Notes under the pieces: generated by a model
What the model saw: only the letters and a program-made list of their open reading frames with translations
Told to the model about the DNA's origin: nothing
The model's database searches: none
Made by a program: the position numbers and the translations under genes
Shown here: positions 3,091-40,378 of the stretch, piece by piece
Layout: the number at the start of each line of letters is the position of its first letter
Numbering within the stretch: position 1 is the first letter of the stretch
Assembly: GCA_023213395.1 (NCBI GenBank)
Contig: CM041465.1
Span: forward strand, 174,599,741 to 174,663,740
Source of the DNA: Cycas panzhihuaensis
Taxonomy: Eukaryota; Plantae; Cycadophyta
Direction: 5' to 3'
Length of the DNA stretch: 64,000 nt

Positions 3091-3468
3091 TGATGCGTAT
3101 TACTCATCCTTATGTTTTGACATTATGTAATATTATGTGTATATTACTGTACTCATATGTAAAGTATATTTAAGTTAGTTAAACAATCAGTCAGGTAGTC
3201 AGAAAGTTAAGTAGCCAGTTAGTTAGGTAGTTAGAAGGTAGTTTTGAAGTGGTTACTGAGCCCTCAATATTAATGAGAGGCCCTTTCATTGTAAAAAAAG
3301 CATTCGCGAACATCAATGTTCATTAATGATCATCTGTAAGTATGTATTTCATGAATGTAAGCTAGATTCTCTGAGATAGTAGAAGAGAATTCATTCTATC
3401 ACCTCTTCAACAATCCCTGTCTGATGGGCAATGTTCTCTGAGAGAACATTCTCCACGATTACATATCA
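3091..3468 (+). repeat. 5' LTR of A
   Basis: Direct repeat of 12797-13165 with TG...CA ends, followed by the PBS. Confidence 0.92.
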
Positions 3469-4245
3469 ATTTGGTATCAAAGCGTTTTTTCCTGAAGGGA
3501 CATTAATTTTGGATTTTTGAGGCTTGTAGGAGGTACAACAACCATACGAGCCTGTATGGACAAGGGAAAAAAGAGTGCTCAGATTTCAACAAAATTTTAT
3601 GAACAAGTGCACCATCATACGAACATCATTCTATCCTAAAGGAGCATCCTCAAGTTTTCACTCCAAAAGCAGGAAAATGCAAAAAAGCAAAGGTGTGGGT
3701 TTGAAGCTTCAAATGCAGATTTCTCTCAAATTTCTCGGTCATTTTCTTGAAACTAGTCTTAATCTCTTCACTTCAACCAACACCATCTTTCAAGTACAAA
3801 TTTGTTGCATTTTATTTCTATTGTTTTAAATACGAGCAAAATTTGATTTGAAACCCTAACTGCCATTCACTGTCTCGAGTCAAATTTCTTTCAAACTAGA
3901 GATCCAATCGGAAAACAGACTGCAGATCTAGATAGGTGCTAAAAAGATCTTGAATCTAAGTCCAACTTTGATTTTTCACTTTTTGGTTATACTTTTCCAT
4001 ATAACTGTACGACTGTATGAATTTGCACAATCCAAGATAGATATTTGTCTTCTAGTGTCTATTCTGACTTTAGATATATTCTCTTGCTGTTTAAAAGCTG
4101 AAAAAAATCTACCTACCATTCTATCAGAAAAAAAAAGGCACTTTCATATCATATTACAAGTTTATAACTATAAGCCCTCACGGCAGGCATACCTCGTAAC
4201 AAAAAATAATTTTTTATATTTATTGAAGTCAATAGTTTGTCAAAC

Positions 4246-5086
4246 ATGGCTCGTAGAGGTAAATAGACTTCTTCCGAGGAAGAAATGGTTGAAGACACTG
4301 AGCAAAGTGTAGAAGAGCCTTCATTGGATTTCACACAAATGATGGAGACCCTACAATGACAAGCAAATGCTCAAGCCCAGATGATGCAGAATATGATGGT
4401 GATGTTCCAACAAATGATGACACAATAGACACAACAAGCATAACAATTCTTACATGATCAATAGACTCAGGTTCCTACAACAGTTTGACGGTTCCATCAA
4501 TGCCAAGACTTTAGATGGATGGTTTCAGAGCCTTGAGGCATATTTTAAGTGCCAAAATCTCATTGACGCACAGAAAATCTATGTAGCAGAGATATATATG
4601 ACTGATCAAGCACTAGTATGGTGGCAAATCCATACTAAAAATTTGCGCACACACTAGAGGCAATCCATGACTTAGAAGATTCAACCCTCAGAAATAGATT
4701 CTATCTAGTTGAATATAAGGATGATCAAATGAAGAAGTGGTTGCACATTCGCTAGCAACCCAAACAATTTGTACAACAGTACATTGACACTTGCCATAAA
4801 TTATCCATTATGCTCAAAGCAACTGATGAAAAAAACATACTCAAATTAAAGTTTCTCTGAGGACTATCTCCATATCTACAAAGGGAAATGGAGTTGCTCG
4901 ATATCCCTTTGTTGGATTATGCTTTTTGCTATGCTCTCAAGATGGAAAGCAAGACGCAAAGGAAGACACCTCCACAACAGTGACATCCACAAGTGCAACA
5001 CAAACAACCTTTCAATTAGAGAAAGGAAAATGATGCAGCAAAACTTTAAGTAGCAGAGAAGGGAAACTACTGCACACTACATAAGT
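4246..5086 (+). pseudogene. gag: gag of A (5' part; continues at 11624-~12300 with the protease)
   Basis: ATG at 4246 and capsid motif FDGSINAKTLDGWFQSLEAYF...QALVWWQ. The zinc knuckle YCTLHK|SYNHSNEEC is split by B. The protease site IIDNGNMNN is near 11872. Many CAA/CAG>TAA/TAG stops. Confidence 0.85.
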
Positions 5087-5649
5087 TGTAGCGAAAATTT
5101 TTATCTTATTTCAGAAATAATACAGAGATTCACAGATATTAATCTAATATAAGCTCAATAGATCTCATCAACTCAAATAATAATGAATATTGGAAATACA
5201 CCATAAACATCGAAGTAAAGTAATGGAAATAGTACAAATAAAAGGTAAATATATTGTCAAAAATAATACTGGAAAGTACAAAAATATGCAATAGAATGTC
5301 CTTACTAAATGCTTGTCCCTTCAAGGCAGGAATCCTCCAAATATCTCAGGCCAAAAGGCCAAGCCAATTGTAGTCCTAGAGCTGAAAATATGGAAGAGAA
5401 CCAACCGAAATGATCCAAAATGAGGGCTTTGATCCCTATTTATAATGGTCAATTATTATCCAGCTTGAAGTCAGCTAGAACTGGGACAATTCACTGAAAG
5501 TGAACCATGAATGAAGTCGGCCAAAAGACAGGCTTACAGGTCAGCTAATACTCCCATTTCTGCACTCATTTTTGGGGGTTTAAGTCGGCTGATAAGCCCC
5601 TAAAGAGAGGGGTTATCTAGAATGCAACAAGTCTCCCCCCTGAAAAAAT

Positions 5650-8600
5650 GCTTTGCCCTCAAAGCATTGGTAGTTTTGGAAACTGTTGTATCAACTCGTC
5701 TGACTCCCATGTTGCATCCTCTACATCCAACATCTTCCACTTTATGAGGCACTCTCTATGTTGTCTTGTTTGAAGTTGCTTGGTTTGAATTTAGAGTTAT
5801 CCCCTCTGGTTCTAGTATAATCTTTCCTTCTTCATTGAGTTCTGGCAAGGATGTCTGTGGTACTACTTTGTCGCCAATCTTTTTCTCTAGGCATGACACA
5901 TGAAAAGTGTCATGGATCTTGCTTGTTGTTGGTAGCTTAAGTTTGTAGGCTAGTCCCCCAATTCTATCAAGTACTTGATATAGTCCAAAATATCAAACAA
6001 CGAGCTTTTGTGTATTCGTATTGCTTAATGATGTTTGTTTGTGTGGTTGCAACTAGAGAAAAACCCAATCATCCTTCTGGAAGCTCCTTTCGAATCGTTG
6101 TGCATCTACTTGCTACTTCATTTTGTTCCTTGCCATCACCAAATTATCCTTAAGAATTCTAACCATGTCTTCCATCTACTTTTGGTGTTCTTGAACAGCC
6201 TGAACCCGGGACGATCTGTTCCATGTCAATAGAGATGGCAGTTGGTATCCGTAAAGAGCCCGAAAAGGTGTCATCTTGGTGGAAGAGTGGTATGTTGTAT
6301 TATACCACCACTCAGCTAAGTGCAACCACTTGTGCCACTGGTTCTATTTATTCGAGCAGAAATTCCTTAAATAACCTTCTAGACATTTGTTGACTATCTC
6401 CGTCTGTCCATTTGTTTGAGGATGATAAGCTATGCTCATGTGCAATTTCATACCTACAATTCTGAATAAGTCCTTCCAAAATTTACTAGTGAACTTTGGG
6501 TCCCTATCGCTAACAATAATTTTAGGAAACCCATGTAATCTATGGATTTCTTTCATATATAGTTTTGCAATGTCACTTGCATTTGTTATTAAGTGTAGCT
6601 CTAAAAAATGACTATATTTTGTTAATCTATTGACCGTGACAAAGGTCGCATCTTTACCTTCTGATTTTGGAAGACCTGTAATAAAATCCATTGAAATTTC
6701 TTCCCACTTTTGGTTGGGAATTGGTAAGGGTTGTAGACTCGACTTATTTACATATTCTACCTTGTTTCGTTGACAAATATCGCATTCGGTCATGAATTTT
6801 TGAACGTCTAATTTCAAGCCCTTCCAAAAGTATGATGTTTCTATCTTCAAATATGTCTTGTCTATACTAGTGTGGCCTGCTTTTGGGACTGAATATGCTT
6901 CTTGCAATATAATTCCTTTTAATTTGGAATTTTTGGGAATACATATTTTTCCATTCCTAAGAATCAAATCGCCCTTTTGCTGGTATCTATCTGAATTGCT
7001 TCCCTTGATGTTATCTAAGAGTTGTTGGTATCTTGGATCTGCCATATATTCAATTCTGGTGGATTATAGCCATGAGGGCGTAATTGTTCATATCAATTGT
7101 AATGAAGGACCTTCCTTTGTTTCATCTAGGATTCGTGATAATACGTCTTCTATAATATTCTCTTTGCCTTTCTTATATACTATCGTGAAGTCAAAATTCT
7201 GCAACTTACTGACCCATTTTTATTACTCATCAGACAATGTCTTCTGTCTGAGAAAGTATTTCAGACTATCATGATCCGTGCACACTTGAAATGAATTCCC
7301 TAGTAGATATTGTTGCCATTGTTGGATGGCATGCATGATTGCGAGCATCTCCTTATCATAAGTTGGTTTGAGTTTTTCTCTGTCATTCAACTTTCGACTC
7401 TCATAAGCTAATGGTTGTTCATCTTGGAGTAAGACTGCCCCTATTCCAAATCCTGATGCATCACATTCCAGTATGAACGGTTTTGAAAAATCGGGTGTTA
7501 CCAAGATTGTGTTAAATATGTTGAACACTTTGCAAGTGTTACATGGGTATAGGTATCACACTCGAACCCCTTTGTGGGGGTCTGGGGGCCCGTTGTAGGG
7601 CCCTCGGCTGGGGGTCTAGGGGGACCAGCGGCCCCCCAAGCGGGGGTTCAGGGGCGGGATCCCTCGAGAAACATTTTTAGGTGTCTTATGGGGGTCTTTG
7701 TCGGCCCATGATTTATGCCCATTGTATTGTAAAACCACAAGGCGGTACCTTGTAATGTTGTGTCTATATATTCTTATGTAACGGCACATGTAACATCAGA
7801 TGGATGTAGATGAGTCGAGGAGAAGAGTTGGGGTTTATTCATCTCTGTAATTCTTTAGCGATTGCTCAGATTAATAAAAGGTCTATGCTTAGACCTGAAT
7901 CTCCCGGTGTTCTTTATTGAGTGCTTGACTTGTTTATGTTATTAGTTCTTTGCATGGTTTAAAAGTTCTGTTATCACATTGTTTCTGCGATTATATTTTT
8001 CTCTTCGAGCTATTACCATGGATTTCTTTAGATAACCAAAAGCTTCTTCTTCTTTTGGGTTCCAAGCAAACACACCTTTCTTGGTTAAGTCTGTGAGTGG
8101 AGTTGCTAAGTGTGCATAACCCTTTATGAACTTCCTAACAAACCCTGTTGTCCCCAAGAACCCTCGAACTGCTGTAACACTTGTTGGGGTTGGCCAATTG
8201 ACAATTGCTTATATCTTCCTTGGGTCAATCCTTGTACCTTCTCTAGTTATGATATGGCCTAAGTATTCTAGTTCTTCCTTTGCAAATGAACATTTCTTCT
8301 TGTTGGCAAGGATTTGATTATCACGTAGAATTTCGAAAATGATTTTCAAGTGTTCTAGATGCTCCTCCTAAGTTTTACTGTAGATTAAGATATCATTGAA
8401 GAAAATTAACACGAATTTGCGTAACACTTGCCTGAAGGTATTGTTCATGGTGCTCTGAGAAGTCGCTGGTGCATTCATTAATCCAAACAACATTACCTTG
8501 AATTCAAATAGGCCTTCATGCATTTTGAACATTGTTTTGTACATGTCTTCTTACCTTATCTGAATTTGATGATACCCTGGGCATAGGTCAATTTTTGAAA

Positions 8601-10593
8601 AGTACTTTTCTCCATAGATTTCGTCCAATAAGTCGTAAATGTGCGAGATCGGATACCTGTTCTTGACTATTAGTTGATTGAGACCTCAGTAGTCCACACA
8701 CATTCTATATGAGCCATCCTTCTTTGGGCTAATAACAATTGGAGATGCAAATGGGCTTGTGCTGGTAGTAATACTTCCTTGGTATAGTAGTTCCCTTGTG
8801 ATTTTCTTGATTTCTTTCCGTAAATGATATGGATGCCTATAGAGTTGAATGTTGACAGACGCTGCACCTGGTATAAGTTCAATTGCATGTTGATTTTGTC
8901 GAAGAGGCAGTAGTCCTTTCGATTCATTGAACATTGTCTTGTACTCTTCTTAATTTGTTGAACCTCTGGTGAAATATCCTCAATTTTGACCTTATAGCAT
9001 GTCATAATGTATGTTGATGGGCTTTTTCTAAGGAGCTTCTCCATTCAGTGTAACAAATCCAATTGTACTGGTAGCGTTGTCGGTGCCTACAATCTGTATT
9101 TATGTCCTCCCTGGCGAAAACACATAAATCTGGTCATACAATTAGTGACTACATTTCCTAGTGTTTGAAGCCATTGAATTCCCAATACCATGTCCATGTC
9201 GTTGATTTGCATTGTGAACATGCATGTGCTTGTGGAATATTCGCCCATTTGTAAGTTGAGTTTTCTGTAGAAAACTCCACACAGTGTTGTTTTCCCATTG
9301 GTGATTGATACTTGGAATGTGTTTATTGGTTCTATTTTAATTCCAAGCTTCTTTGCAGTTGCCCTATTTATAAAGTTGTGTGTACTGCCACTATCGACTA
9401 GTATTGCGACAGGCGCCCCTTTAATCATCCCTTAGAACTGGAGTGTTTGAGGGGTGACACTTTGTCCTGTAATTGCTTGTAATGAAATGTGTACGTTTTC
9501 TGTATCTATTCCAATAGTTCGATGACTTCATCTTCTTCTGGCTATTCTTTGACTTCTTCATGAATTTCTTCGAGTGCTTCTTCTTACTCTGATATTGTCG
9601 TGTCTTCGGTATTGATCATGTATACCTTTTTCCCAGTGCATTGATGTTCGCAGTTCCACTTCAAACCACATTTGAAATAAGTTCCTTTCTTTATATGTTC
9701 TTCCTTTGTTGTTGTCTCTTGATTATTTCAAACCGCTAATGGAGCCTCAACTTTAGTTCCTGACCTGTCCCAATTTGGGTTAAATCCCTGTGAGCTTTCT
9801 GTTTTGCGTGTGAATGTAGGTCTAGTCTCCTGCAATTCTGCATCCACGCATCTTTCTGTCTTGATTGCTGAATCCAATGTTGGTACCTCCATTGATTTTA
9901 GACGATATCTTATTGGAGGTTTCAATCCGCTAATATATGTTTCCAGAAGGAGTTCTGGTGGCACTGTTAACAGAATCAGACATTGTAACACCTGAAACTG
10001 TTCAATAAACTCCTAGACCGAGCTTGTTTGTTGTAATCTTGTCAACTAAGTGAAATAATCCGTACTCTATGAATCTTCATATTGGGTTATGAGACCCCGC
10101 TTCATGTTGTGCCAACTTTCTGCTTGTTTTCCACTTGTTCGAAGCTAGCACGAATACCATTTCAAAGCTTGACCGTACAAATATAGTGATGCCAAGGATA
10201 CTTGCTCATTTTCTGGTATAGCATAGACTGAGAAGTAGGTCTCCATTTGTAAAATCCATCCCCTTATATATCTTGATTTGTCGAGGTCAAACTTTTCCAA
10301 GGTGACCTTTGCCATTGTTGTCCCATCGTTACTTTTTCTCCTTTGATATTCTCCTCCTCTTTTAAATCTTCCTTTGAAATTACTTGTATTTTCCTGTTCT
10401 ATTTTGCCTAGAGGATTCAGGTTTATCCATTCCTTTTCTTGTTTGGCCCATATTGTTTTGCTTGTGGTCCATCTAGCTTGAGGTTAATTTTGTTGATGAA
10501 GGTCGTGAGGTTTGCTAAAGAAGTTAGGATTTCCTTTCCTACTTCGTCTGTGGTGGTTTGTTCCTAACTAGATTGGCCTTGGGCAGTCGACAT
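5650..10593 (-). pseudogene. gag-pol of B (frameshifted, with stops)
   Basis: ORF fragments: 9728-9991 gag, 9087-9428 PR, 8686-8934 RT, 7223-7528 RH, 6344-7045 INT. Confidence 0.93.
7510..8006 (+). mobile_element. S: ~497-bp LTR-like fragment (truncated solo LTR) inside the RT-RNase H junction of B
   Basis: It is absent from homolog D (AAGACTG|GAGTTGTTACC near 36480). It starts TGTTAA, has a G/C-rich block at 7561-7666 and a TATA-like CTATATAT at ~7764. There is no terminal CA and no TSD. Confidence 0.65.
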
Positions 10594-10834
10594 CTTCTTT
10601 TGCTGTGTAATCTTCTTAGAGTGTAACTCAGTTTGGGCACCTCTCAAGATCCACGAGTGGGAGGGTGAGAAAAAATTTCACTTCCTTCTTGCCAAATTAT
10701 CGCCTTCCTTCCTTGTAGGGCTAACGGTTGAGAACGTGAATGGACGGTCTTGATGCCCCTCCGGAAAAAATTTCGACTATATTCTCAGAAAGCACACTTC
10801 CACAGGATAGCTTCAATGAAACTCTGATACCACT

Positions 10835-11074
10835 TGTAACGAACCATTACACCAAAACCTCGAGGTGTTAGTGAAGACCACCCAAGTGTGTAACATTTCC
10901 TCCCCCACAAGGCGTTGACATCCTGACGACCCACTTTTGGTGACCCACTCTCGGTAATTTCGCATCTCATCGAGCCCTGGGAAAACATTGCTATGCCGAC
11001 ATTCTACCGAGGTCGTCCTCTCCAAGGTCGTCCCCTCTGAGAATCGAACCCATGACCTTGGCTCTGATGCCACT
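10835..11074 (-). mobile_element. T: TRIM-like unit (PBS, short internal region, PPT, 61-bp LTR) embedded at the PBS of B
   Basis: On the minus strand: TGGCATCAGAGC (11072-11061), internal region, PPT GGGGGAGGAAA (10906-10896), mini-LTR TGTTAC...GTTACA (10895-10835), then a second PBS (10832-10821). It is absent from D. Confidence 0.8.
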
Positions 11075-12796
11075 TGTAACAGAAACTTTTATCTTATTTC
11101 AGAAATAACACAGAGATTCATAGATACTGATCTAATATATGTTCAACAGATCTCATCGATCTCAAATAATAATGAATATTGGAAATACACCATAAACACC
11201 AAAGTAAAGTAATGGAAATAGTACAAATAAAAGGTAAATATATTGTCAAAAATAATAGTAGAAAGTACAAAAATATACAATAGAATGTCCTTATTGAATG
11301 CTTGTCCCTTTGAGGCGAGAATCCTCCAAATATCTGAGGCCAAAAGGTCGAGCCAATTACAACCCTAGAGCCAAAAATATGGAAGAGATCCAACCAAAAT
11401 AATCCAAAATGAGGGCTTTGGTCCCTATTTATAATGGTCAATTATTATCTAGCTTAAAGTTGGCCAGAACTGGGAGAGTTCACTGGAAGTGAATCATGAA
11501 TGAAGTTGGCCAGAAGACAGGCTTACAGGTCGACTAATACTCCCATTCCTGCGCTCATTTCTGGGGGTTTAAGTCCGCTAACAGGCCCCTAAAGAGAGGG
11601 GTTATATGGAATGCAACATAAGTCCTATAACCATTCCAATGAAGAATGTTGGAAGTAGAAGGAGCAATGCAAAGCCAAAGCAAAGACCTTGGTATTTGAA
11701 GAAATAAACAACACAACGAATGAAGAAAATAACATGTCAAACGAAATACTTGTTACAAATCCGATGGTAGTAAATCCCAATTTAGTCTTGATGGCAAAGG
11801 ACTATGATGTTTCAGCCAAAGAAGCATTATTTACCCATAATTGCTAAATTAAAAACCGTATGATACTGTGCATTATTGATAATGGCAATATGAATAATCT
11901 GGTATTGGAAAAACTTGTTAGGGAACTCAATCTCTCTACATAGCTTCATCCCAATCGCTATACACTTGGATGGGTTCAAAAACAAAGGGGAACACCACAA
12001 ACAAAGATCAATAGAGTTTGTCATGTAATATTTGCAATAAACCCTTATATAGACACAGTCCCTTTTGATGTAGTTCCCATGGATTGTTGTGAAATACTTC
12101 TAGCGAGACCCTATTGATATGATAGAAAGGCAATATACTATGGGCACACTAATGTATATCATTTATAGAAAGACAACAACACTTATGCACTTCAATCTTC
12201 ATCCTCTCCAATTACTTCAAGAATGAGTACACAACCTACTAGACTCACCAATGTTGTTTGAGAAGGTACCAATCTATTTGTGAGGCCAATCTCTACACTA
12301 GCCACCGCACAAATACAAAAGTTTCTTCATACAATTTCGCCAACCAAGAAAGGCAATTCCTCATCAATCAAGAGATCTATCTAAGCGTAGATAGATCATT
12401 CTCATAGCTTGCCAATGAGTGCACTTCCAGTAGGTTTACACCCAACATAGGTCACACAACACCACAGTGTGCTAAATATATGCCACATTGAGGAAGGGTA
12501 CAATTAAATAAACCCTACTCCTTGTGATGATTCTTTAGGGTCCATTGGACATACACCTATAGAGGCATTTCACTTAACGACTACCGGTGACAAGCCTAGA
12601 CATGTAGCTAAAGATTGTTGAGCAAGATTCCTCGACCCCATCAACAACACTTCTTGATACTAGACAATCTCATCCAGCATCGTCTCATGCCCTAGTAAAC
12701 AAGAAGAAGACATGGTCCAACCCATCATTTGCAGATTTCTGCTTATCAGTAGAGGATTAAGAAATTGAGGACAATTTCCTCTAAAGCAGGGAGGAA

Positions 12797-13165
12797 TGAT
12801 GAGTATTACTCATCCTTATGTTTTGGCATTATGTAATATTATGTGTATATTATTATACTCATATGTAAAGTACATTTAAGTTAGTTAAATAATTAATCAG
12901 TTAGAAAGTTAAGTAGCCAATTAGTTGGGTAGTTAGAAAGTAGTTTTGAAGTGGTTATCGGGCCCTCAATATTAATGAGAGACCCCTTCATTGTAAAAAA
13001 AGCATCCACGAACATTAATGTTCATTAGTGATCGTTTGTGTGTATTTCATGAATGTAAGCCAAATTCTCTAAGATAATAGAAGAGAATTCATACTATTAC
13101 CTCTTCGACAATCCCTATCTAATGGTAACATTCTTTGATACTGCATTCTCCACGATTGCACATCA
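12797..13165 (+). repeat. 3' LTR of A
   Basis: Repeat of 3091-3468, preceded by the PPT. Confidence 0.92.
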
Positions 13166-13978
13166 ATCCCAATGCTTAATGTTACACTGACAAAAGTAAA
13201 GGGAGTGAATAGGGTCTTGTTCACCACCTTTGTTTGTCTACCTTTCTATGGGTGGAAAGCTGTAGAAAATTTAAGCTTGTAGCTCAACTATACCAAGATG
13301 CACTCTCACTTTGGCCAACATCCACATGAATTACCATAAATGAACAAATATTTATCCTTACAATTAAATAACCCTCCATATACAATCAAGATGAAAGAGT
13401 GCACTATATGCATCCAACTCACCCCATCATAAGTATTAATCAATTACTTACAAGCAATTCATTTATCTCACGCGGGTTTCAATTTATTCATACAACAAAC
13501 AAGAGGAGAATGTTCCATGTTGAAGTTGCAAGAATGAGGAGTTACAAGTGTGGTTTCTAGAATCCACCATCTAATGCACATTGTCCTCAATTGTTTATTT
13601 GCTAGAATTAGTGGCCACGTTCTCGTGTTACCACTACCTCACTCTATAATGCCCCAGTTCATTAGGTAGTGCATCCCTTATACTAACATGCAAATGGTGT
13701 CCATGTCACATGTTTAGACAATAGGCCACCATGTTGGTCCTCCCTAGATTAGTCTCACAAAGGAGGCAACCTAGAGTTCTCTAGCTCATCTTAGAAGAAC
13801 TGACCATATCAATATCCAAGTGGTGGTGATTGACAATAAGAGACCGCAACTCACCACTCGTGGATAACTGGGAATCACTAACATGGATCTAATCTATATT
13901 CCCATCCTTGGGTTGCCTTCTCCATAGAATCTTGTCCATTGGATTTCTATGGTGGATCTAGTCCATAGAATCCAACAT

Positions 13979-27871: not shown

Positions 27872-29129
27872 CTAACAAAGACAACCATTTTCTTAGTTAT
27901 TTCTAGCAATCTTTGTGCAAAATGCTTAGCTACCACCTAAAGTTTTTGACGACCTTCCATTCCCCATACTAGTGGCCAAATAGAGGTGGTTAACAAGACA
28001 TTGGTACATGCACTCCATATCTACCAGCACAACACTAAACAATGGGACTCACATCTCCACCATATCCAGCACAATTATAATTAAGCTACTCACATTTCCA
28101 CTGGTCACTCTCCATTCGAAGTGTGTTATGGATATCGGCCACTTGCCCCTTATGAACTTACACTTGTAGTTCCTTCTCTTCTCACGGTCCACAAACATAA
28201 AGAACAACAAAAAGTAGCCTCACCTCCTTTATTGACCACATGGCTAAACTACACCCTATAATGTAACAAATACTCCACCAAACACAAGCCAAATATAAAG
28301 CAGTTCAGGATCAACATTGCACCAAAGCTTTTTTCCAAGTTGGCGACAAAGTCTGGCTTCATTTGAATTGTAGGAGATTTAAGCACCACAATAAGCTTAA
28401 ACCTATCCGTTTTGATCCTTATACTATACTCCAAGTTATTGGACCAAATGCTTTTTGATTCAGAAATAACACAGAGATTCACAGATATTGATCTAATATA
28501 TGCTCAAACAAATCTCATCAATCTCAAATAATAATGAATATTGGAAATTCACCATAAACACCGAAGTAAAGTAATGGAAATAGTACAAGTAAAAGGTAGA
28601 TATATTGTCCAAAAATAATACTGGAAAATACAAAAATATACAACAGAATTCCCTTACTAAATGCTTGTCCCTTCGAGACGAGATTCCTCCAAATATCTTA
28701 GGCCAAAAGGCCGAGCCAACTACAGCCCTAAAGCCGAAAATATGGAAGAGATCAACCGATAATGATGAGCCAAAATGAGGGCTTCGATCCCTATTTATAG
28801 TGGTCAATTATTATCCAACTTGAAGTCACCCAGAACTGGGACAGTTCACTAGGAGTGAACCATGAATGAAGTTGGCCAGAAGACAAGCTTACATGTTGGC
28901 CAATACTCCCATTCCTGCGCTCATTTCTGGGGGTTTAAGCTGGCTGACAGGCCCCTAAAGAGAGGGTTTTCCTGGAACGCAACAAGTCCCCCCGTGAAAA
29001 AATGCTTTGCCCTCAAAGTATTGGTAGCTTTGGAAACTGTTGTATCCACTCGTCTGGCTCCCATACCGTGTCTTTTGCATCCAACGTCTGCCACTTTATG
29101 AGATACTCTCTAACTTGTCTTGTTCGAAG

Positions 29130-32100
29130 TGGTAGATCAAAGAACAAAGACACATAGAGAAAGCATGAAGGAGGAAATAAGAACTCTCTTGTCATTATGT
29201 GAGACTGAGGACATATTTATACATGAGGTCTCAATAACCCTTTAGGGTTTTAGTGTTACACTTTATGTTACAATGACTAACATTAGTTCTCACAAATAGA
29301 ATATTGATATATTACATTAAAGTACATGGATGAGACATTATATTCTAACATCCCCTCTTAATGTCTAATCCATTCTTTCATGCCAATCTTGTTTTTGAAG
29401 TATAGGAATTTGTCCTTGGGAAGCGGTTTTGTGAAGATGTCTGCTAGTTGTTCAGAGCTTGGATAGTAAATCTGCCTAATCTCTCCATTGTCAACTTTCT
29501 CTCGGATGAAGTGATGATGGACTTCAATATGTTTGGTTCTGGCGTGGAATACCGGGTTCTTGGTCATTTGGATAGTGCTTTGGTTGTCACAATTGATCGA
29601 GGTTGCTGAAGTTTGAACAAATTGCAATTCCTCTAAAAGACGCCTGAGCCAGATAGTTTCATAGGAAGATTGAACTGCTACATTGTATTCTGCTTCAGAG
29701 GTTGACAGTGAGACAGTGGGTTTCTTCTTTGTTCTCTAGGATATTATACCATTTCCTAGGCCAAAACAGTACCCCGAAGTAGATTTTCGACTATCAATAC
29801 CTCCTCCCCAGGTGGAGTCAGTGTACCCTATTAGAAGATTATTTTCTTGAAGGCTGTAGGACTTTGTACCTTGTAGCTATCAAAGAATGTGTTTGGTTGC
29901 CTTCCAATGAGATTCCTTTGGAGCAGACATGAATCTTGAGATTAATCCCACTACAAATACTATGTCGGGTCTGGTAGAGGTGAGGTAGATGAGGTTGCCA
30001 ACCAATTTCCTGTAGAGGGTTTCATTTACTAGCTTTCTGTCTGGATCAATTGTTAATTTAGTTCCAATGCACATTGGGGTTGGAGCCGATTTGCATTCTG
30101 TTATATTGTTTCCTCTAGTATCTGAGTAGTGTATTTGCTTTGATGCATGAAGATCCCATCTTGTTGTTTGTGTATCTCTATGCCAAGGTAATAATGGATT
30201 TCTCCCAAGTCTGTCATCTTGGATGCCTTTGATAATTGGACTCGTAGAGAGGTGATCCAATTAGCATTGTCTCCTGTGAGTATCAGGTCATCTACATAGA
30301 GGACAAGAATTGTGATATGATTATTCTTGTCAACATGGATGTAAAGCCCTGAGTCGACATCGGATCGCTTCATTCCAAGACTTCGCAAGAAGAAGTCCAT
30401 ATTGGCATACCAAGATCTGGGAGCTTGGTTTAGTCTGTAAAGTGCCTTGTTGAGTTTACAGATGAGATGTTCTTGTCCCTTTGATATAAACCCTGGGGGA
30501 TGCTCCATGTAGACTTCTTCTTGAATGTCTCCATTGAGGAAGGCTCCTTTAACATCCATCTGGTACACAGCCCAATTGTTTTGAGTAGCTAGAGCAATCA
30601 CCATCCTTAGAGTCATTATTTTGTTGACCAGAGCAAATGTTTCTTCATATTCCACTCCTTGGGTTTGAGAGTAGCCCTTTTCCACAGGCCGAGCCTTAAT
30701 ATTTTTCAATTGATCCATCTACTTTTTCTTTAATTTTGTATAGCCATCATCATCCGATAATGGGTTTGTCTTGTGGCAGATCTGTTAGATCCTAGGTTTT
30801 GTTGTTGAGAATAGACACCATTTCTTCATTCATTGCCTTATTCCATTGGGGATCCTTCTGAGCCTCTTGAAAGGACATATTGTAATTAGTAGTAAGTCCT
30901 TGGTGTGTTTGGCTTCTGGTTCTTCTCCCTTCTTGTACCAGGTTTGGAGTTATTCGAGATTCCTGCATTGTCTTAAGATACCATTTTGATACTTCCCTTT
31001 GGGATGGAGCAGGAGATTGCCTTGAGTTGTCGACGGTGATATTTTTCTCAGATGAACCTGCTTCTTGATCTAGAATCTTGCCTAAATCACTTGATGTGAT
31101 GTCTTGAGGAGTGGCGTTTTCGTTTGCTTGATGTTCATTTTGAGGATCCCCAGGGAGAGGAGGAGTCCAACTTGGGACAATGAAGTCTTCTAGTAGAGTA
31201 GGGGAATGAGTCCCGTCTTCTGGAGTCACTATAGCATCTTCATCAAAAAACATATCCCTACTGGGATAAATCTTGTTGGTGAGTAGATCCATGCATTTGT
31301 AGGCCTTGGAGATCTCACTATATCCTACAAGGATACATTTTCTGCTTTTATCATCTAATTTCTTTCTTTTCTCATCTGGAATGTGCATGTAGACGGTGGA
31401 TCCAAATACTTGAAGATGTGAGACATTAGGTTTATTTCCTGACCAAGCCTCTTCGAGTGTAATATCTTTTAGGGCCTTAGTGGGACTTCTGTTGAGTAGA
31501 TAAACAACAGTATTAGCCGCTTCGACTCAGTATTTGTTGCTCACTTCTTTTTATTTCAAAAGTGATCGACTCATCTCTGTAATAGTCCTATTTTTCCTTT
31601 CAGCTACTCCATTTGATTGTGGAGTGTAGGGGGTTGTGAGTTGTCTTTGTATGCCGTGTTTCCTGCAGTAGTGCCCGAATTCATTGGAAGCGAATTCTCC
31701 ACTGTTGTCAGTCCTCAAGCATTTGATGTGGCATCTGCTTTCCTTTTCATCTTTGACTTTGAATTTGAGAAAGGTATCAAATACATCTGCTATCAATTTG
31801 AGGAAGTAAATCCAAGTTTTTCTGGTACAATCATCTATGAAGGTCAGGTAATATCAAGCTCCTTGCACTGAGAGAGGTGTGATTGGCCCACAAAGATCAC
31901 TATGTATTAGTTGAAGTTTGGATGTAGCCCTAGTTGTGCTTGGAGAGAATTGTAATTTATGTTGTTTACTCATCATACATGTGTCACAAATAGAATTAGA
32001 TTTTTTTATCCAAGGCAATCCAATCACCATATCATGTTTACTCAACAAAGATAAACTATCATAAGATAGATGACCATAGGGCAAATGCCAGAGTTTTTCA

Positions 32101-34746
32101 TTATCAACATGCTCCATTACATGAAGGGTAGAGTGAGTTGGTGTGACAAGGAATTTGTACAATCCATGAGTTTTGATGCCTTCACCAATCACTTTGTTCC
32201 CTTTGTGTTTGTCAAAAATAACACAACTGTCACCATCAAATAGGACTTGAAGTTTGTTGTTGATCAGTTGACAGACTGAGAGCAGGTTCTTTGTCATTCC
32301 TGGAACATAGAGTACACGTCCAACTTTTTTTGTGTTTCCATCAAGAATGGTAATAGGAATAGTTTTGTATCCTTGAATAGGATGCGTGGTGTTGTCCCCA
32401 AGCTTGACCGATCTAGAGTTTTGAGAGTTGTTCATGTTGTTTAACCAGGATCTCTTGTGAATCATGTGTCTGGAGGCTCCCGAGTCTATGAACCGGTCAT
32501 CCTAACCTTTGTTGTGCATGGTCGTGGTGACGGCTATAACAAATGCAGTTTCTTCTTCTTCCACTTCGGATGAATCATTTTTCTCTGGCTGTCCTGAGTA
32601 GCTCCCTGATGTTATAACCCCTCTTTCTATATCAACTTTGCAGTGTCAACAATCAATGGTGTAGTGACCTGCCTTGCCATAGTAGAAATAGATGATCTGA
32701 TGACTAAAGCGACCCCCTGAGTGTTGTTGTGTGGTAGAGAAAGGAATGGGTTGTGGCATGGTAGGGGGTGGAATAGATCGTGCTCTTCCCGAACTGAAAT
32801 TGGTGGGTCTTCTTCTTCCTCGATCAGATCCTCGATTGCTTCCTCTGGTGGTGGCATTCTTGCCTCGAATGGTTACTCTGGAGGAAAAAGCATTCTCTAG
32901 TTCATTCTCCAAGCTTGCTTCAATTTGCTCATGGTGCAAGAGTTGACCACATACAGTAGTGAATGATGGCTACATAATTTTCGCTGTCAGCTTGTATGAG
33001 GTGATGAAGTTTCTAAAGCGAGCTGGGAGTTTGTGTATTATGAGGTCAATAAGATCCCCATCAGTGTAGGTGACTCCCACAGATTCTAACATCCTAAGAA
33101 CCGCCATTTGGTTTTTTAGGGCCATAATACGGGCTATGTTCTTTTGAGCATATAAAGTCCTGAGAATGGTCCATGCCTCATGGGGAGTGTCGGCACTGGC
33201 TACATGAGGTAGAATGGTGTCAACAATTGATAGAGTTATGGATGCAAGTGCTAGTCCTCTCTATTTCAGGCATGTCTTTCCTTCAACAGCATCTACAGGT
33301 TCTGGTTTGATATTTTCTGTCTGGTCCCATACACCTTGAGCCACAAGGATGGATCTCATCTTGGTTTTCCATGATTCATAGTTGTCTCCTGTTAATTTCT
33401 CAGACTCGGAAAGACAGAGAGATGAGACCATGATCAGGAGGATAAATTCTACCATGTCTAGGCACGGGATTGCCTGGACTCGTAGGCCTGTTGATAAACC
33501 TCCAAGGAGATTCAAGACAGGTAGCTTCATGGCGCTAACTGCTAACCACTGGACTACGAGGTTTCGGCGGCCAGTTGGGTTCTCTAATCCAGGATGCGTT
33601 CAAGGTCTTATAGGGTCCTCCTATATACCTTTTAGTACGTGGAGGCTCAAATCCGTGAGTGAGTTTTGTCTGAGACCTGGGTATTGGGTCCTTTCGGTTC
33701 CCGACACTTCACACGTTGGTTATAAACTGCCAACGTGCTTAGCCAAGAACAATAGATCCAACGTGATTATTATAGACCCCCGGAATAGGGTCTCTAAAGT
33801 TGGGAATGGGTAGCTGCCAAGCAATGTTATCTACCTGTGGAGACGTAGCAGGAATGATAGCTAAGATTTTTTTTTTTTTCAAGGACAAACTTATGCAAGT
33901 AATAGATGAGAAGAAAAAATAGTAGAGAAAATTCAGAGAACTTTCTTGTAATAAAAAACGTTGTAGAGGACCGTACAGATTGCTGTGCTGAGATAAAATG
34001 GCTCAAAAATCAACCTTCTTAGAATTGGGCGAATCCAAGCTCGAATAAAAGCTCTTTGCACATAGATTCCAGATTTGCAGTCACATTTTTTATTAGACTT
34101 TCCTGTGAGGAGAAAATTGAGGTCAAATTTCTAGGCGACAACTAGGGTTTTTTTGATTTTTTTTTGATAATTTTCAAATTTGGATGAAGATACCCTTGGA
34201 TGATATCTCAATGAAAAGCTCTTGTCACTAGCTTTCTAATGATACCAAATTTTCCTGGTAAAAAGAGCCATACGATGAGAAATGAGTGAAAAACATAAGT
34301 GGCGGCCGTATGACTTCGAGGGGAGATTAGAGCAGGAAGGAGGCCAAATTTGCAATCGGTCCTTTAGAGAAAAATAATGAGCATGGAGAGGCGCCCCTGC
34401 TTGTAAATTTTCGTCACGATCTGACTCTGAAAAATTTTGGCCATACAGTCGTACGGATTTGTTCGTACAATCGTATGGATCTGTGCTGAGATGCTTGGTT
34501 GATTAGCCTGAATGCTCTAATGCCATGTTAGATCAGAGAACAAGGACACGTAGAGAAAGCATGAAGGAGAAAATAAGAACTCTCTTGTCATTATGTGAGA
34601 CTGAGGACATATTTATACATGAGGTCTCAATAACCCTTTAGGGTTTTAGTGTTACACTTTATGTTACAATGACTAACATTAGTTCTCACAAATAGAATAT
34701 TGATATACTACATTAAAGTACATGGATGAGACATTATATTCTAACA
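29130..34746 (-). mobile_element. I: full-length Ty1/Copia element (5.6 kb) inserted just upstream of the chromodomain of D
   Basis: 221-bp LTRs at 29130-29350 and 34526-34746 (6 mismatches counted by eye) with a perfect TSD CGAAG. PBS complement at 34514-34525 and PPT complement at 29351-29359. Confidence 0.97.
29358..33431 (-). pseudogene. Copia gag-PR-INT-RT-RNase H polyprotein of I (disrupted)
   Basis: Motifs in Copia order: KLTGDNYESW (gag), DSGASRHM (PR), LRTDNSGEF and QSNGVAERKNRT (INT), QMDVKGAFLNG and LYVDD (RT), ARTKHIEV and LADIFTKPL (RH). Confidence 0.95.
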
Positions 34747-34751
34747 CGAAG

Positions 34752-37700
34752 TTGCCTGGTGCGAATTTGTAGTATCCCTTCTGGTTCTAGTATAATCTTT
34801 CCTTCTTCATTGAGTTCTGGCAAGGATGTTTCTGGTACAATTTTGTCATCGATCTTTTTCTTCAGGAATGAAACATGAAAAGTGTCATGGATCTTGCTTG
34901 TTGTCGGTAACTTAAGTTTGTAGGCTACTTCCCCAATTTTGTCAAGTACTTGATATGGTCCAAAATATCGAGGAGTAAGCTTTTGTATATTTGTCTTGCT
35001 CAATGACGTATGTTTGTATGGTTGCAACCAGAGAAAAACCCTATCGTCCTCTGGAAGCTCCTTTCGAATCGATGCACATTTGCTTGCTCCTTCATTCTGT
35101 TCCTTGCCATCACCAAATTATCCTTAAGAATTCTAATCGTGTCTTCCATCCACTTTTGGTGTTCTTAGACAGCCTGAACCTTAGATGATCCGTTCCATGT
35201 CAATAGAGACAGCAGTTGGTATTCGTAAAGATCCTGGAATGGTGTCATCTTGGTGGAAGAGTGGTATGTTGTATTATACCACCACTTGGATAAGTGCAAC
35301 CACTTGTGCCACTAATTTTGTTTATCTGAGCAGAAATTCGTCAAATAGCCTTCCAGACATTTGTTGACTATCTCTATTTGTCCATCTATTTGGGGATGAT
35401 ATGCTATGCTCATGTGTAATTTCGTACTTGCAATTCCGAATAAGTCCTTCCAAAATTTACTAGTGAACTTTGTGTCCCTATCGTTGACAATAGTTTTAGG
35501 AAACCTGTGTAATCTATGGATTTCTTTCATATATAGTTATGCAACGTCACTTGCCTTTGCTATTGACTGTAGCCCTAAAAAATGACTATATTTTGTTTAT
35601 CTATCGACTGTGACAAAGATCGCATCTTTACCTTCTGATTTTGGGAGACCTATAATAAAATCCATTGAAATTTCTTCCCACTTTTGGTTGGAAATTGGTG
35701 GGGGTTGTAGCAGACCCGAGGTCTTTACACATCCTACCTTGTTTCCTTGACAAGTATTGCATTCTGTCATGAATTTTTAGACGTCTAATTTCAAGCCCTT
35801 CCAAAATTATGATGCTTTTATCTTCTGATATGTTTTGTCTATACCAGTGTGACCTGTTTCTGGGACCGAATGTGCTTCTTGCAATATAATTCCCTCTAAT
35901 TTGGAATTTTTGGGAATACAAATTTTGTCGTTCCTAAGAATCAGATCACCCTTTTGCTGGTATCTATCTAAATTACTTCCCTTGATGTTATCTAGGAGTT
36001 TTTGGTATCTTGGATCTGCCATATATTAAGTTCTCATGGATTTTAGCCATGAGGGCATAATTGTTGATATCAACTGTAATGAAGGACCCTCCTTTGTTTC
36101 ATCTGGGATTCGTGATAATGCGTCTGCTATAATATTATCTTTGCCTTTCTTATATACTATCGTGAAGCCAAAATTCTGCAATTTACTAACCCAATTTTGT
36201 TGCTCATCAGACAATATCTTCTGTCTGAGGAAGTATTTCAGACTATCATGATCTGTGCGCACTTGAAATGAATTCCCCAGTAGATATTGTCTCCATTGTT
36301 GGATGGCGTGCATCACTGTGAGCATCTCCTTATCATAAATTGGTTTGAGTTTATCTCTGTTATTCAACTTCCGACTCTCATAAGCTATTGATCATTTATC
36401 TTGGAGTAAGATTGCCCCTGTTCCAAATCCTGATACATCACACTCCAGTACAAACGGTTTCGAAAAATTGGGTGTTGCTAAGACTGGAGTTGTTACCATG
36501 GCTTTCTTGAGATCACTAAAAGCTTTTTCTACTTTCGGGTTCCAAGCAAATGCGTCTTTCTTGGTTGAGTCTATGACTAGAGCTGTGATGTGTGCATAAC
36601 CCTTTATGAACTTCCTAACAAACCTTGTTGTCCCCAAGAACCCTCAAACTACTGTAATACTTGTTGGGGTTGGCCAAGTGACAATTGCTTGTATCTTCTT
36701 AGGGTCAATCCTTATGCCTTCTCTAGTTATGATGTGGTCTAAGTATTCTAGTTCTTCCTTTGCAAATGAACATTTCTTCTTGTTGGCAAAGAATTGATTA
36801 TTGCGCAGAATTTCGAAAACGATTCTCAGATGTTCTAGATGCTTTTTCCATGTCTTATTGTAGATTAAGATATCATCGAAGAAAATTAACACAAATTTGC
36901 ATAACACTTGCCTAAAGGTATCGTTCATGGTGCTCTGAAATGTTGCCGGTGCGTTCCTTAATCCAAATGACATTACCTTGAATTTGAACAGGCCTTCATG
37001 TGCTCTAAATGTCTTATAGACGTCTTCTTCTGTTATTTGGATTTGATGATATCCTAAGCGTAAGTCAATTTTTGAGAAGTACTTTGCACCATGGATTCAT
37101 CCAACAAATCATCAATGCATGGGATCAGGTACCTGTTCTTGACTATTAATTGATTGAGACCTCAGTAGTCCACACACATTCTATATAAGTCGTCCTTTTT
37201 TGGACTGATAACAACTGGGGCTGCAAATGGGCTTGTGCTGGTGGTAATACTCCCTTGGGATAGTAGTTCGCTTGTGATTTTCTCGATCTCTTTGCATAAA
37301 TGATATGGGTGCCTATATGGTCAAATGTTGACTGGCGCCAGACCTGGTACAAGCTCAATTGCATGTTGATTTTGCCAAAGAGGCGGTAGTCCTTTCAATT
37401 CGTTGAACACTATCTTGTATTCTTCTATAATTTGTTGAACCTCTGGTGGAATATCCACGATTTCAACCTTATAGCATGTCATAATGTATGGTGATGGGTT
37501 TTTTGTGAGGAGTTCCTCCATTCGATGTGACAAAACCAACTGTACTGGTGGCATTAGTGGTCCCTGCAATCTGTGTTTATGCCCTCCTTGGCGAAAGCAC
37601 ATAACTCTAGTCATATAATTAGTGACTACATTGCAAAATGTTTGAAGCCACTAAATTCCCAATACTGCGTCTACGTCGCCGATTTGCATTACGAACATGC

Positions 37701-39068
37701 ATGTGTTTGTGGAATATTCGTTTATTTGTAAGTTGATTTTTTTGCAGAAACCTCCACACGACATCGTTTTTCCATTGGAGATTGATACTTGGAATGTGTT
37801 TATTGCTTCTATTTTAATTCCAAGCTTCTTTGCAGTTGCCCTGTTTATAAATTTGTGTGTACTACCACTATCGACTAGTATTGCAACAGGCACCCCTTTT
37901 ATCATCCCTTGGAACCAGAGTGTCTGGTACTTTGCCTTATAATTGCTTGTAGTGATATGTGTGCACTTTCTATGTCTAGCTCCAATAGTTCATCTACTTC
38001 ATCTTCTTCTCGCTTTTCTTGGGCTTCCTCGTGAATTTCTTTGGGTGGTTTTTTTTCTTGCTCTGATATTGTTGTGTCTTCGGTATTAATCATGTATATC
38101 CTTTTCTCGGTGCATTGATGTTCGCAGTTCCACTTCGAACCACATTTGAAACAAGTTCCTTTCTTTATATGTTCTTCTTTCATTATTGTCTCTTGATTAT
38201 TTCTAATTGCTAATGGAGCCCTAGATTTGGTTCCTGACTTGTTCCAAGTTGAGTTAAATCCCTACAAGCTTTCCATTTTACATGTGAAGGTAGGTCTAGT
38301 CTCCTGTAGTTCTTCTTCCACACATCTTGTTGTCTTGATTGCTGAATCCAATGTTGGTACCTCCATTGCTTTTAGACGATATCTTATTGGAAGTTTCAAT
38401 CTGCTAATGTATGTTTCCAGAAGGAGTTTTGGTGGCACTGTTAACGAAATCAGACATTGTAACACTTGAAACTGTTCAATAAACTCCTAGACTGAGCTTG
38501 TTTGTTGTAATCTTGTTAACTGGGCGAAATAGTCCGTACTCCATGAATCTTCATATTGGGTTATGAGCCCATGCTTCATGTTGTGCCAACGTTTTGCTTG
38601 TTTTCCACTTGTCTGAAGCCACCACGAATACAATTTCAAAGCTCGACCATACAAATGCAGTGATGCCAAGGATACTTGCTCGTTTTTCGGTGTTGCATAG
38701 ACTGAGAAGTATGTCTCCATTTGTAAAATACATCCCCTTATATCTCTTGATTTGTCATGCTCAAACTTTTCCAGGGTGGCCTTTGCCATTGTTACCCCAT
38801 CATTACTTTTTCGCCTTTGATATTCTCCTCCTCTTTTAAATCTTCCTTCAAAATTACTTGTATTTTCTTGTTCTATTTTGCCTAGAGGATCCAGGTTTAT
38901 CCATTCCTTTTCTTGTTTGGCCCATATTGGTTCTGCTTGAGGTTTGTCTAGCTTGAGGCTAATTCTATCCATGAGGACCGTGAGGTTAGCTAGAGAAGCT
39001 AGGATTTCCCTTTCTGCTTCGTCTGTGGTGGTTTGTTCCTGACTTGATTGACCTTGGGCGGTCGACAT
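34752..39068 (-). pseudogene. gag-pol of D
   Basis: ORF fragments at 38487-39068, 37651-37905, 36644-36973, 36026-36367, 35312-35530 and 34734-35027 (GPY motif). Confidence 0.93.
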
Positions 39069-40378
39069 CTTCTTTTGTTGTATAATCTTCTTAGAGCGTA
39101 ACTCCCTTTGGGCTCCTTTTAAGTTCCACGGGCGGGAGGGTGGGCAAAAATTTCACTTCCTTCTCACCAAAAATGTCACTTCTTTCCTTGCAAGACTGAC
39201 TGTTGTGAACGTGAGTAGATTGACTTGATCCCCTCCAAAAAAATTTCGACTGTATTCTCAGAAGGTACTCTTCCACAGGATAGCTTCAATGAAGCTCTGA
39301 TACCACTTGTAGCAGAAGCTTTCAACTTATTTCAGAAATAACACAGAAGTTCATAGATATTGATCTAATATATGCTCAAACATATGTCATCAATCTCAAA
39401 TAATAATGAATATTGGAAATTCACCATAAACACCAAAGTAAAGTAATGGAAATAGTACAAATAAAAGGTAAATTATTGTCCAAATATAATACTGGAAAGT
39501 ACAAAAATATACAACAGAATGCCCTTACTGAATGCTTGTCCCTTCGAGCTGTGATTCCTCCAAATATCTCAGGCCAAAAGGCTAAGCCAACTGCAGCCCT
39601 GAAGCCCAAAATATGAAAGAGATCAACCAAAAATGATGATCCAAAATGAGGGCTTTGATCCCTATTTATAACGGTCAATTATTATCCAGCTTAAAGTCAG
39701 CCAAGATTGGGACAGTTCACCGGGAGTGAACCATGAATGAAGTTAGCCAGAAGACAGGCTTACAGGTCGGCTAATACTCCCATGCCTGCACTCATTTCTG
39801 GGGGTTTATGTCGACTGACATGCCCCTAAAGAGAGGGTTTTCCTGGAATGCCATATGAGAGTTGTTCAAATAGATACATGATGATTCTTTGAAATGTTGT
39901 TGGACCGTTGCATAGTCCAAATGGCAGTCAATTATATGCAAAAATTCTAGATTGTTTGATAAAAGTGGTTTTTAACTTATTATTTTCTACAATAATAATT
40001 TGGTTATAACCAGAAAATCCATCTAAAAATGAATATATTTCATGCCCAGTGACTTTTTCCAATATGGTATCAATAAATGGCATTAGAGATGGGTCCCTGA
40101 GGGTTACTGTTTTCAACTTTCGAAAATCCACACAAATTCTAAGTTTGTCGTTTCTCTTAGGAACTACTACAATCAGTGACACCCACTCACTCGTTTCTAC
40201 CTTGAATATGATCCTTGCATCTAACATTTTCTTTATCTCTTCTTCCACTTGCTGTACATATTTTAGATTCATTTGATATGGTTGATTTTTTACAGGTTTG
40301 GTGCCAAGTATTAATTCTATCTTATATTTGCATAATTCTTTCAATAGACCTTGCAAATCTTTATAGGCCCATGCAAAT

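Follow-up and report, generated by a model that had tools for sequence, protein, structure and literature searches.

A TRIM unit joined into a chromovirus at the primer-binding site in Cycas panzhihuaensis, and a predicted split Pol III promoter in plant TRIMs

In the window, by which we denote the whole 64-kb stretch of Cycas panzhihuaensis DNA analyzed here, a decayed chromovirus (element B) carries a 240-nt unit at its primer-binding site (PBS). This unit is composed of the body and one long terminal repeat (LTR) of a miniature retrotransposon (TRIM). Judging from the sequence and from contigs of public runs, we regard it as on balance probable that the unit was joined to B at second-strand transfer and that RNA polymerase III (Pol III) would transcribe the free TRIM from a split promoter.

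Anatomy of Element B and Its Sister D

Element B extends from 5087 to 11618 and reads, on the minus strand, in the order 5' LTR, PBS1, TRIM body, polypurine tract (PPT), mini-LTR, PBS2 and B leader. Its 5' LTR (11618-11075, minus strand) ends with CA and is 89% identical to the homologous outer 3' LTR (5087-5630, minus strand), the divergence between both amounting to a K2P distance of 0.12. A single 5-nt target-site duplication (TSD), identical on both sides (5082-5086 and 11619-11623), encloses the whole of B including the TRIM unit. In the contigs of public runs, B-family sequences show loose ends at 11074-11075 with unrelated flanks.

The B leader and the decayed gag-pol region (5631-10821, minus strand) end with integrase, SH3-like domain and chromodomain. 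The domain matches to PF17921, PF24626 and PF00385 are above cut-off, that to PF00665 (rve) is below. B is a decayed chromovirus with a Ty3/gypsy pol and a chromodomain after the integrase. A first-pass annotation of this DNA had described it as an autonomous chromovirus; the type holds, whereas stops and frameshifts in pol show that B is no longer autonomous, even though its integrase, SH3-like and chromodomain matches are kept. The best named matches of the integrase are Ginkgo and pine gene models with only about 50% identity, and B may resemble Reina/IFG7.

Both joints of the unit lie within a 19-nt repeat, located at 11062-11080 and 10822-10840 (both minus strand), with 18/19 identical positions and a period of 240 nt. 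Each copy consists of the last 6 nt of an LTR, a 2-nt spacer and 11 nt of a tRNA-Met-type PBS. The first copy connects the end of the B 5' LTR to PBS1 (from 11072, minus strand); the second connects the end of the mini-LTR to PBS2 (from 10832, minus strand), and the B leader follows. PBS1 and PBS2 each carry a substitution of their own. The PBS motif of the window is the Met PBS given in the supplement of PMC13570524. The order of parts, the 61-bp LTR and the 19-bp repeat bounding a 240-bp unit, all proposed in the first-pass annotation, are borne out by the sequence.

The sister element D provides the empty-site comparison. It can be aligned continuously with B across the site of the unit, with one PBS only (39295-39305), and has a single LTR-end/PBS junction (39295-39313, minus strand), as had been noted before. 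D occupies 28459-39855, is interrupted by a younger copia element (29130-34746, LTRs 97% identical), and its outer LTR ends appear eroded. An insertion of about 500 nt in B (7509-8007) with G/C runs, possibly a solo LTR, is missing from D. B itself is nested in an older plus-strand element (3091-13167; LTRs 3091-3470 and 12797-13167, 86% identical), the PPT of which is similar to that of the TRIM. The 64-kb window, made up of nested repeats and free of N, contains no further copies of the 240-nt unit.

The Captured Unit and Its Free Relatives

The captured unit (10835-11074, minus strand) comprises a PBS, a body, a PPT and a 61-nt LTR. Its internal region (10896-11074, minus strand) is 179 nt long, non-coding and of about 54% GC; the PPT, read from the sequence, lies at 10906-10896 (minus strand). 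The adjoining mini-LTR (10895-10835, minus strand; 61 nt) has TG...CA ends and shares only its last 6 nt with the B LTRs, while its 3' part can be aligned to the LTRs of four loci from the metagenome scan described below (L051, L036, L074 and L043). With a length below 1 kb, non-coding sequence, PBS, PPT and TG...CA LTR, the unit shows the features by which TRIMs are recognized.

Of the public runs listed, 20 out of 24, from 11 studies, share part of the window, at most 0.32 of its words. Contigs of seven of the 24 runs were compared, the first set consisting of four runs with four organism codes. The junction search covered 46-52% of the large runs, and its counts refer to the rows listed, such that rare copies could escape.

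In all four runs of the first set, contigs end at the outer end of the mini-LTR (10835) and continue into unrelated flanks (86, 57, 71 and 28 contigs), the agreement at these loose ends being 0.38-0.41. Likewise in all four runs, many contigs cover the internal region, and the mini-LTR plus PBS continues into the TRIM's own body in 92, 55, 58 and 29 contigs. Loose ends with unrelated flanks at 10895 were found in at least 35 contigs of one run (24 of 870 rows listed). Jumps back by 240 occur in one contig in each of three runs, and the junction from TRIM body to mini-LTR was seen in a second contig search, too. The presence of both LTR-body junctions together with unrelated flanks indicates free two-LTR TRIM copies at many sites. 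Such a copy was pieced together from separate contigs, the junctions of which give by arithmetic a size of about 301 nt, matching the earlier estimate of about 300 bp; no complete two-LTR copy with TSD of the window's TRIM family was seen within one contig, and the relatives L051 and L036 possess exact TSDs.

The B family presents the complementary picture. Contigs running from the B LTR through a single PBS into the B leader number at least 17, 5 and 24 in three of four runs of the junction search, and joints that skip the 240 nt were found in two runs of the first set. The unit is thus part of a genuine, high-copy, free TRIM family, as the first-pass annotation had supposed, and the B family normally has a single PBS.

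The last 43 nt at the 3' side of the mini-LTR (10835-10877, with palindrome, T4 and box A; see below) recur in a sister repeat family that has another 5' part. Loose ends of this family at 10877 occur in 40-58 contigs per run, and the summed depth over these 43 nt far exceeds that of the TRIM body.

Candidate Promoter Motifs in the Window

Two motifs of the unit resemble the internal promoter of tRNA genes, both scored here by the type 2 Pol III consensus that PMC10137851 gives in its available text. Box B (11050-11040, minus strand), just past PBS1, matches GGTTCRAnYCY at 10/10 positions, is preceded by AGGTC as in a tRNA variable loop, and is the only perfect match on both strands of the 64 kb. 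Box A (10854-10844, minus strand), located in the mini-LTR, matches TRGYnnARBGG at 9/9 positions (shuffle p 0.005), a perfect box A alone being not rare (the 11-nt form is matched perfectly 10 times in 128 kb). The box B-like motif had been recognized in the first-pass annotation and stands as a full match, whereas box A and the T-run had been missed. The latter, a T4 run and predicted Pol III terminator (10854-10857, minus strand), adjoins a 10-nt palindrome (10857-10866, minus strand), the putative R region and RNA start, and the mini-LTR accordingly ends in palindrome-TTTT-box A.

In a free copy, box A and box B are 33 nt apart with the PBS between them. In the captured unit they stand in the wrong order, and the unit would therefore be silent for Pol III. 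The window copy also has a T4 in its body, which is absent from most other copies.

We consider it likely that the free TRIM is transcribed by Pol III from this split tRNA-type promoter. TFIIIC would bind box A within the 5' LTR, in its U5, as well as box B immediately beyond the PBS, and the whole promoter would be formed only by a 5' LTR followed by the body. The 10-nt palindrome, about 11-12 nt ahead of box A, would be the place where the RNA starts; the T4 in the 3' LTR would terminate it, and R would consequently coincide with the palindrome. The start of the palindrome lies 12 nt before box A, where PMC10137851, in its available text, places the RNA start. The predicted R is only about 10 nt long, and the T4 follows about 10 nt past the predicted start; Pol III would have to pass the T4 of the 5' LTR and stop at that of the 3' LTR.

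The unit is neither a tRNA gene nor a tRNA cloverleaf. ARAGORN reports 0 tRNAs for the window; Rfam, applied to the unit up to E 10, returns only chance-level SNORD25 and ST7-AS2 hits far below gathering score, and 0 hits for 20 of the 98 metagenome loci introduced in the next section. Among 10 other PBS-like sites of the window, no box B scores above 7/10. At two of the window's PBS sites, 44755 and 45776 (plus strand), AGGTC follows as in the TRIM, with box B reaching only 6/10.

Split Motifs in Other Plant TRIMs

A scan of plant metagenomes for a PBS plus box B yielded 98 loci, 71 of them distinct; the same scan of viral contigs yielded 0. Enough flanking sequence was available for 61 distinct loci, and 37 of these reveal an LTR pair, with 11 exact TSDs and eight with one mismatch when boundary slip is allowed. 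The 91 loci with 60 nt upstream were grouped into 24 clusters, 12 of which have two-LTR evidence, six loci having been added to this evidence by hand. The 12 clusters were selected on PBS and box B only; the LTR was outside the scan pattern.

Across the 12 two-LTR clusters, the mean box A score peaks at 7.1/9 for a box ending 20 nt before the PBS. This peak was reached by 0 of 500 shuffles, and the other 12 clusters score 4.6 at the same place. A run of four or more T is found 30-37 nt from the LTR end in 23/23 two-LTR copies (the subset of the 37 paired loci with largely complete LTR alignments), and in the body of 4/23. The unselected columns of box B are tRNA-like in that position 59 is free and position 61 mostly C; position 52 is mostly A, not G. 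A 10-mer anchored at the T-run shows full self-complementarity in the window and, with G-U allowed, in five of the 12 clusters, the 10-mers differing in sequence, against a background of 0.8-0.9%; we chose this test with the data already in view, and an unanchored palindrome profile is not significant (45/300 shuffles). Since the 12 clusters are related by descent, the shuffle and binomial values overstate independence. Taken singly, only 3/12 clusters reach p <0.05 for box A; the A14 position fails in the rows of L002 and L057, and L039 is without box A. In the large clusters the gap between the boxes is 42-44 nt, which is beyond the 30-40 nt stated in PMC10137851 and inside the 25-50 nt of PMC8825457, as far as the text of both is available.

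The largest grass-type cluster corresponds to SMART by size (82-85-nt LTR) and by two small RNAs, listed in the supplement of PMC3281118, which match it across box B. A further element, beet TRIM-01 (72-nt LTR, 291 nt, Met PBS, Retrofit partner), resembles the SMART-type loci in its PPT, as given in the supplement of PMC13570524, and this likeness makes it a candidate for the same split promoter. These motif patterns offer a lead towards a split Pol III promoter common to several families of plant TRIMs.

The motifs might have a different meaning. Box B is similar to the reverse complement of a tRNA T loop, and extended pairing with the primer is employed by Ty1/Ty3. The box B-like stretch could reflect pairing with the T-arm of the primer tRNA, or it could be a packaging or dimerization signal, with the TRIM being made by Pol II or by read-through. 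The missing tRNA covariance-model matches on the unit and on the 20 loci would suit this explanation, as would the T4 that is awkwardly close behind the predicted start. The SMART paper (PMC3281118) proposes a promoter with a TATA motif in the LTR, and its main text never mentions tRNA or polymerase. However, box A, T-run and palindrome occupy fixed places although none of them was selected for; box B position 59 varies freely, contrary to what would be expected of a fixed pairing with the primer; and the other PBS-like sites of the window lack a comparable box B. We therefore hold transcription without Pol III to be rather unlikely, and retain the split promoter as the likely one.

Route of Capture

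The 19-nt repeat at both junctions supports a joining of the unit into B at homology of LTR end and PBS, as had been proposed at first. By reasoning, two PBS copies together with an intact B LTR and leader cannot result if a two-LTR TRIM had inserted near the PBS and one deletion had then taken place. Two one-step routes fit by the same reasoning, namely a crossover with a one-LTR circle at the PBS or a reciprocal second-strand transfer. We consider it likely that the joining took place during second-strand transfer of the two cDNAs. Each plus-strand strong-stop DNA would anneal via its PBS overhang to the minus strand of the other element; a two-element circle would result, be opened at the B LTR only, and be integrated once.

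Three of the 71 distinct metagenome loci (L027, L096 and L029) are likewise hybrids at the PBS junction. In L027 (oriented 646-998), a foreign 155-nt TG...CA repeat is followed by PBS, SMART body and SMART LTR within one 5-bp TSD. That one TSD encloses a foreign repeat at the 5' end and a TRIM LTR at the 3' end implies that a hybrid cDNA preceded integration. The 155-nt repeat is a near-perfect hairpin. L096 (oriented 171-510) consists of a foreign 130-nt TG...CA repeat, PBS, SMART body and LTR, and a second PBS-like site; its layout is as in the window, and the 130-nt LTR is copia-like. In L029/L035 (oriented 611-1025), a foreign 188-nt palindromic repeat precedes a TRIM unit, a second spacer/PBS follows with 8 nt, and the downstream sequence is presumably similar to an inverted SIRE 3' region. 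L058 and L089 likewise show foreign sequence ahead of the PBS, yet neither a clear LTR nor a clear TSD, and were left out of the count of hybrids. TRIM arrays in which the PBS is repeated, either in tandem or rearranged, were observed in L039/L045, L052/L065 and L032. The occurrence of hybrids in three loci, one of them in a single TSD, favors joining at second-strand transfer.

The age of the unit points in a similar direction. At least 15 of its 240 positions differ from the majority in at least three of the four runs (40 of 125 difference rows), which is about 6%; 12 of these are A/T here and G/C elsewhere. This is close to half of the B LTR divergence of 0.12. The comparison, which rests on depth-weighted majorities from other organisms, weakly favors a capture at about the time when B integrated.

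By the other one-step route, a one-LTR TRIM circle would have recombined at the 19-nt microhomology into an already integrated B. Exactly the same structure would result from one crossover, L039 and L052 are examples of tandem TRIMs, and PBS-guided one-LTR circles are reported in the accessible part of PMC12786077. Against this, the unit has aged about as much as the B LTRs, and L027 requires a hybrid cDNA before integration. A stretch of 19 nt is, moreover, short for chromosomal homologous recombination. We judge this route unlikely and prefer joining at second-strand transfer. According to the same part of PMC12786077, host alternative end-joining anneals PBS regions at this very step. End-joining at PBS microhomology would not require co-packaging, and the B family is accordingly a candidate helper of the TRIM: the shared 2-nt spacer and 19-mer fit this role without proving it.

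The first-pass annotation had further seen in the chimera a hitch-hiking route for the TRIM. An amplified chimeric subfamily by which the TRIM spreads within B appears quite improbable to us. The structure would, we infer, permit copying from PBS1, and the search was confined to the listed pieces and to about half of the large runs, as specified above. Nevertheless, 0 of the 32 longest pieces listed, out of 1923, bridge B LTR and TRIM body, and neither chimeric junction is bridged by the 32 pieces listed for the first four runs; instead, TRIM bodies go to the mini-LTR and B LTRs to the B leader. Given that no piece among those listed bridges the junction, the chimera is without sign of amplification, and the PBS-junction capture in B is probably a one-off.

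An assembly artefact, in which two repeats were joined across the 19-nt repeat, is very improbable. The junction was indeed not seen among the pieces listed for seven runs, in contigs, which drop rare variants; since no run contains more than 0.32 of the window's words, the locus of the window is probably not among them. The artefact is opposed by the absence of N, the intact TSD, the separate substitutions in the two PBS copies and the similar structures in unrelated data. That the B family ancestrally carried the unit as its leader, and D lost it, is hardly credible: recombination between the PBS repeats would yield the structure of D, but the single-PBS B contigs, the 240-nt skip joints and the unit's own free ends speak against this case, which had been named at the outset as one that would overturn the capture.

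Comparison with Known Systems

In the TRIM landscape of Gao 2016 (PMC4717578), the accessible text names no helper for 278 of 289 subfamilies. These TRIMs are, like the one in the window, short and non-coding, with TG...CA LTRs, Met PBS, PPT and high copy number. Tandem forms are common among them. In the window, one unit lies inside a heterologous chromovirus at the PBS. The terms "tRNA", "polymerase III" and "promoter" are absent from the main text of that study. SMART/FRetro129 (Gao 2012, PMC3281118, available part) is about 290 nt long, and the grass cluster matching SMART carries the same split motifs. The window TRIM differs by its 61-nt LTR (about 85 nt in SMART) and its 2-nt spacer between LTR and PBS; to the SMART-type loci, the comparison covering these and not FRetro129 itself, it shows no similarity beyond PBS and box B.

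Helenus/TRIMp3 (Kojima 2024, PMC10886601) is a TRIM with tRNA-type boxes A and B, for which Pol III was deduced from motifs. As far as the accessible text describes it, both boxes are inside each Helenus LTR, and this also applies to its only plant family (Helenus-1_SMo of Selaginella), with box B in the LTR and not after the PBS. In the window TRIM, by contrast, box B is outside the LTR, past the PBS. By the spacing of its boxes, which is that of tRNAs, the window TRIM would work like TRIMp3, but it is not Helenus. Cassandra, a TRIM transcribed by Pol III whose terminal redundancy is as short as 18 nt (PMC10886601), has a 5S-type promoter wholly in the LTR (PMC7215508, PMC4079214, bioRxiv 2023.07.14.548913, in their available parts). 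A search of the unit with Rfam to E 10 gave no match to 5S rRNA, and the unit is not a member of Cassandra. The consulted part of bioRxiv 2023.07.14.548913 describes Cassandra as the one exception among the TRIMs known and as absent from gymnosperms.

The closest structural counterparts are the three-LTR complexes explained by template switching (Sabot and Schulman 2007, PMC1950507, accessible text), which have three LTRs, two bodies, one TSD and matching outer LTRs, as here. However, those complexes involve one family and pairing at R, while the window combines an unrelated inner LTR with joining at the PBS. For beet TRIMs, the accessible part of PMC13570524 reports chimeras; further literature for comparison is given by the available parts of PMC6317226 and PMC6489336. 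In our full-text searches of openly accessible texts, no paper was listed that describes a promoter divided around the PBS or a TRIM unit joined at a heterologous PBS.

Implications for TRIM Biology

The motifs and hybrids bear on how LTRs of 60-85 nt drive the transcription of TRIMs and on which elements mobilize them. We are evenly divided over a broader reading of both, in which a widespread seed-plant class of TRIMs including SMART would possess a Pol III promoter only where LTR and body are joined, and a 10-nt palindromic R, with PBS hybrids being fossils of second-strand transfer that point to helpers. If true, box A would be placed in U5, the primer site at the place of the anticodon arm, and box B after it. 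A split Pol III promoter predicts RNA start, RNA end and polymerase for families such as grass SMART. Any plant assembly allows hybrids at the PBS junction to be counted; the result would identify helper families, or else show that host end-joining combines cDNAs from unrelated families.
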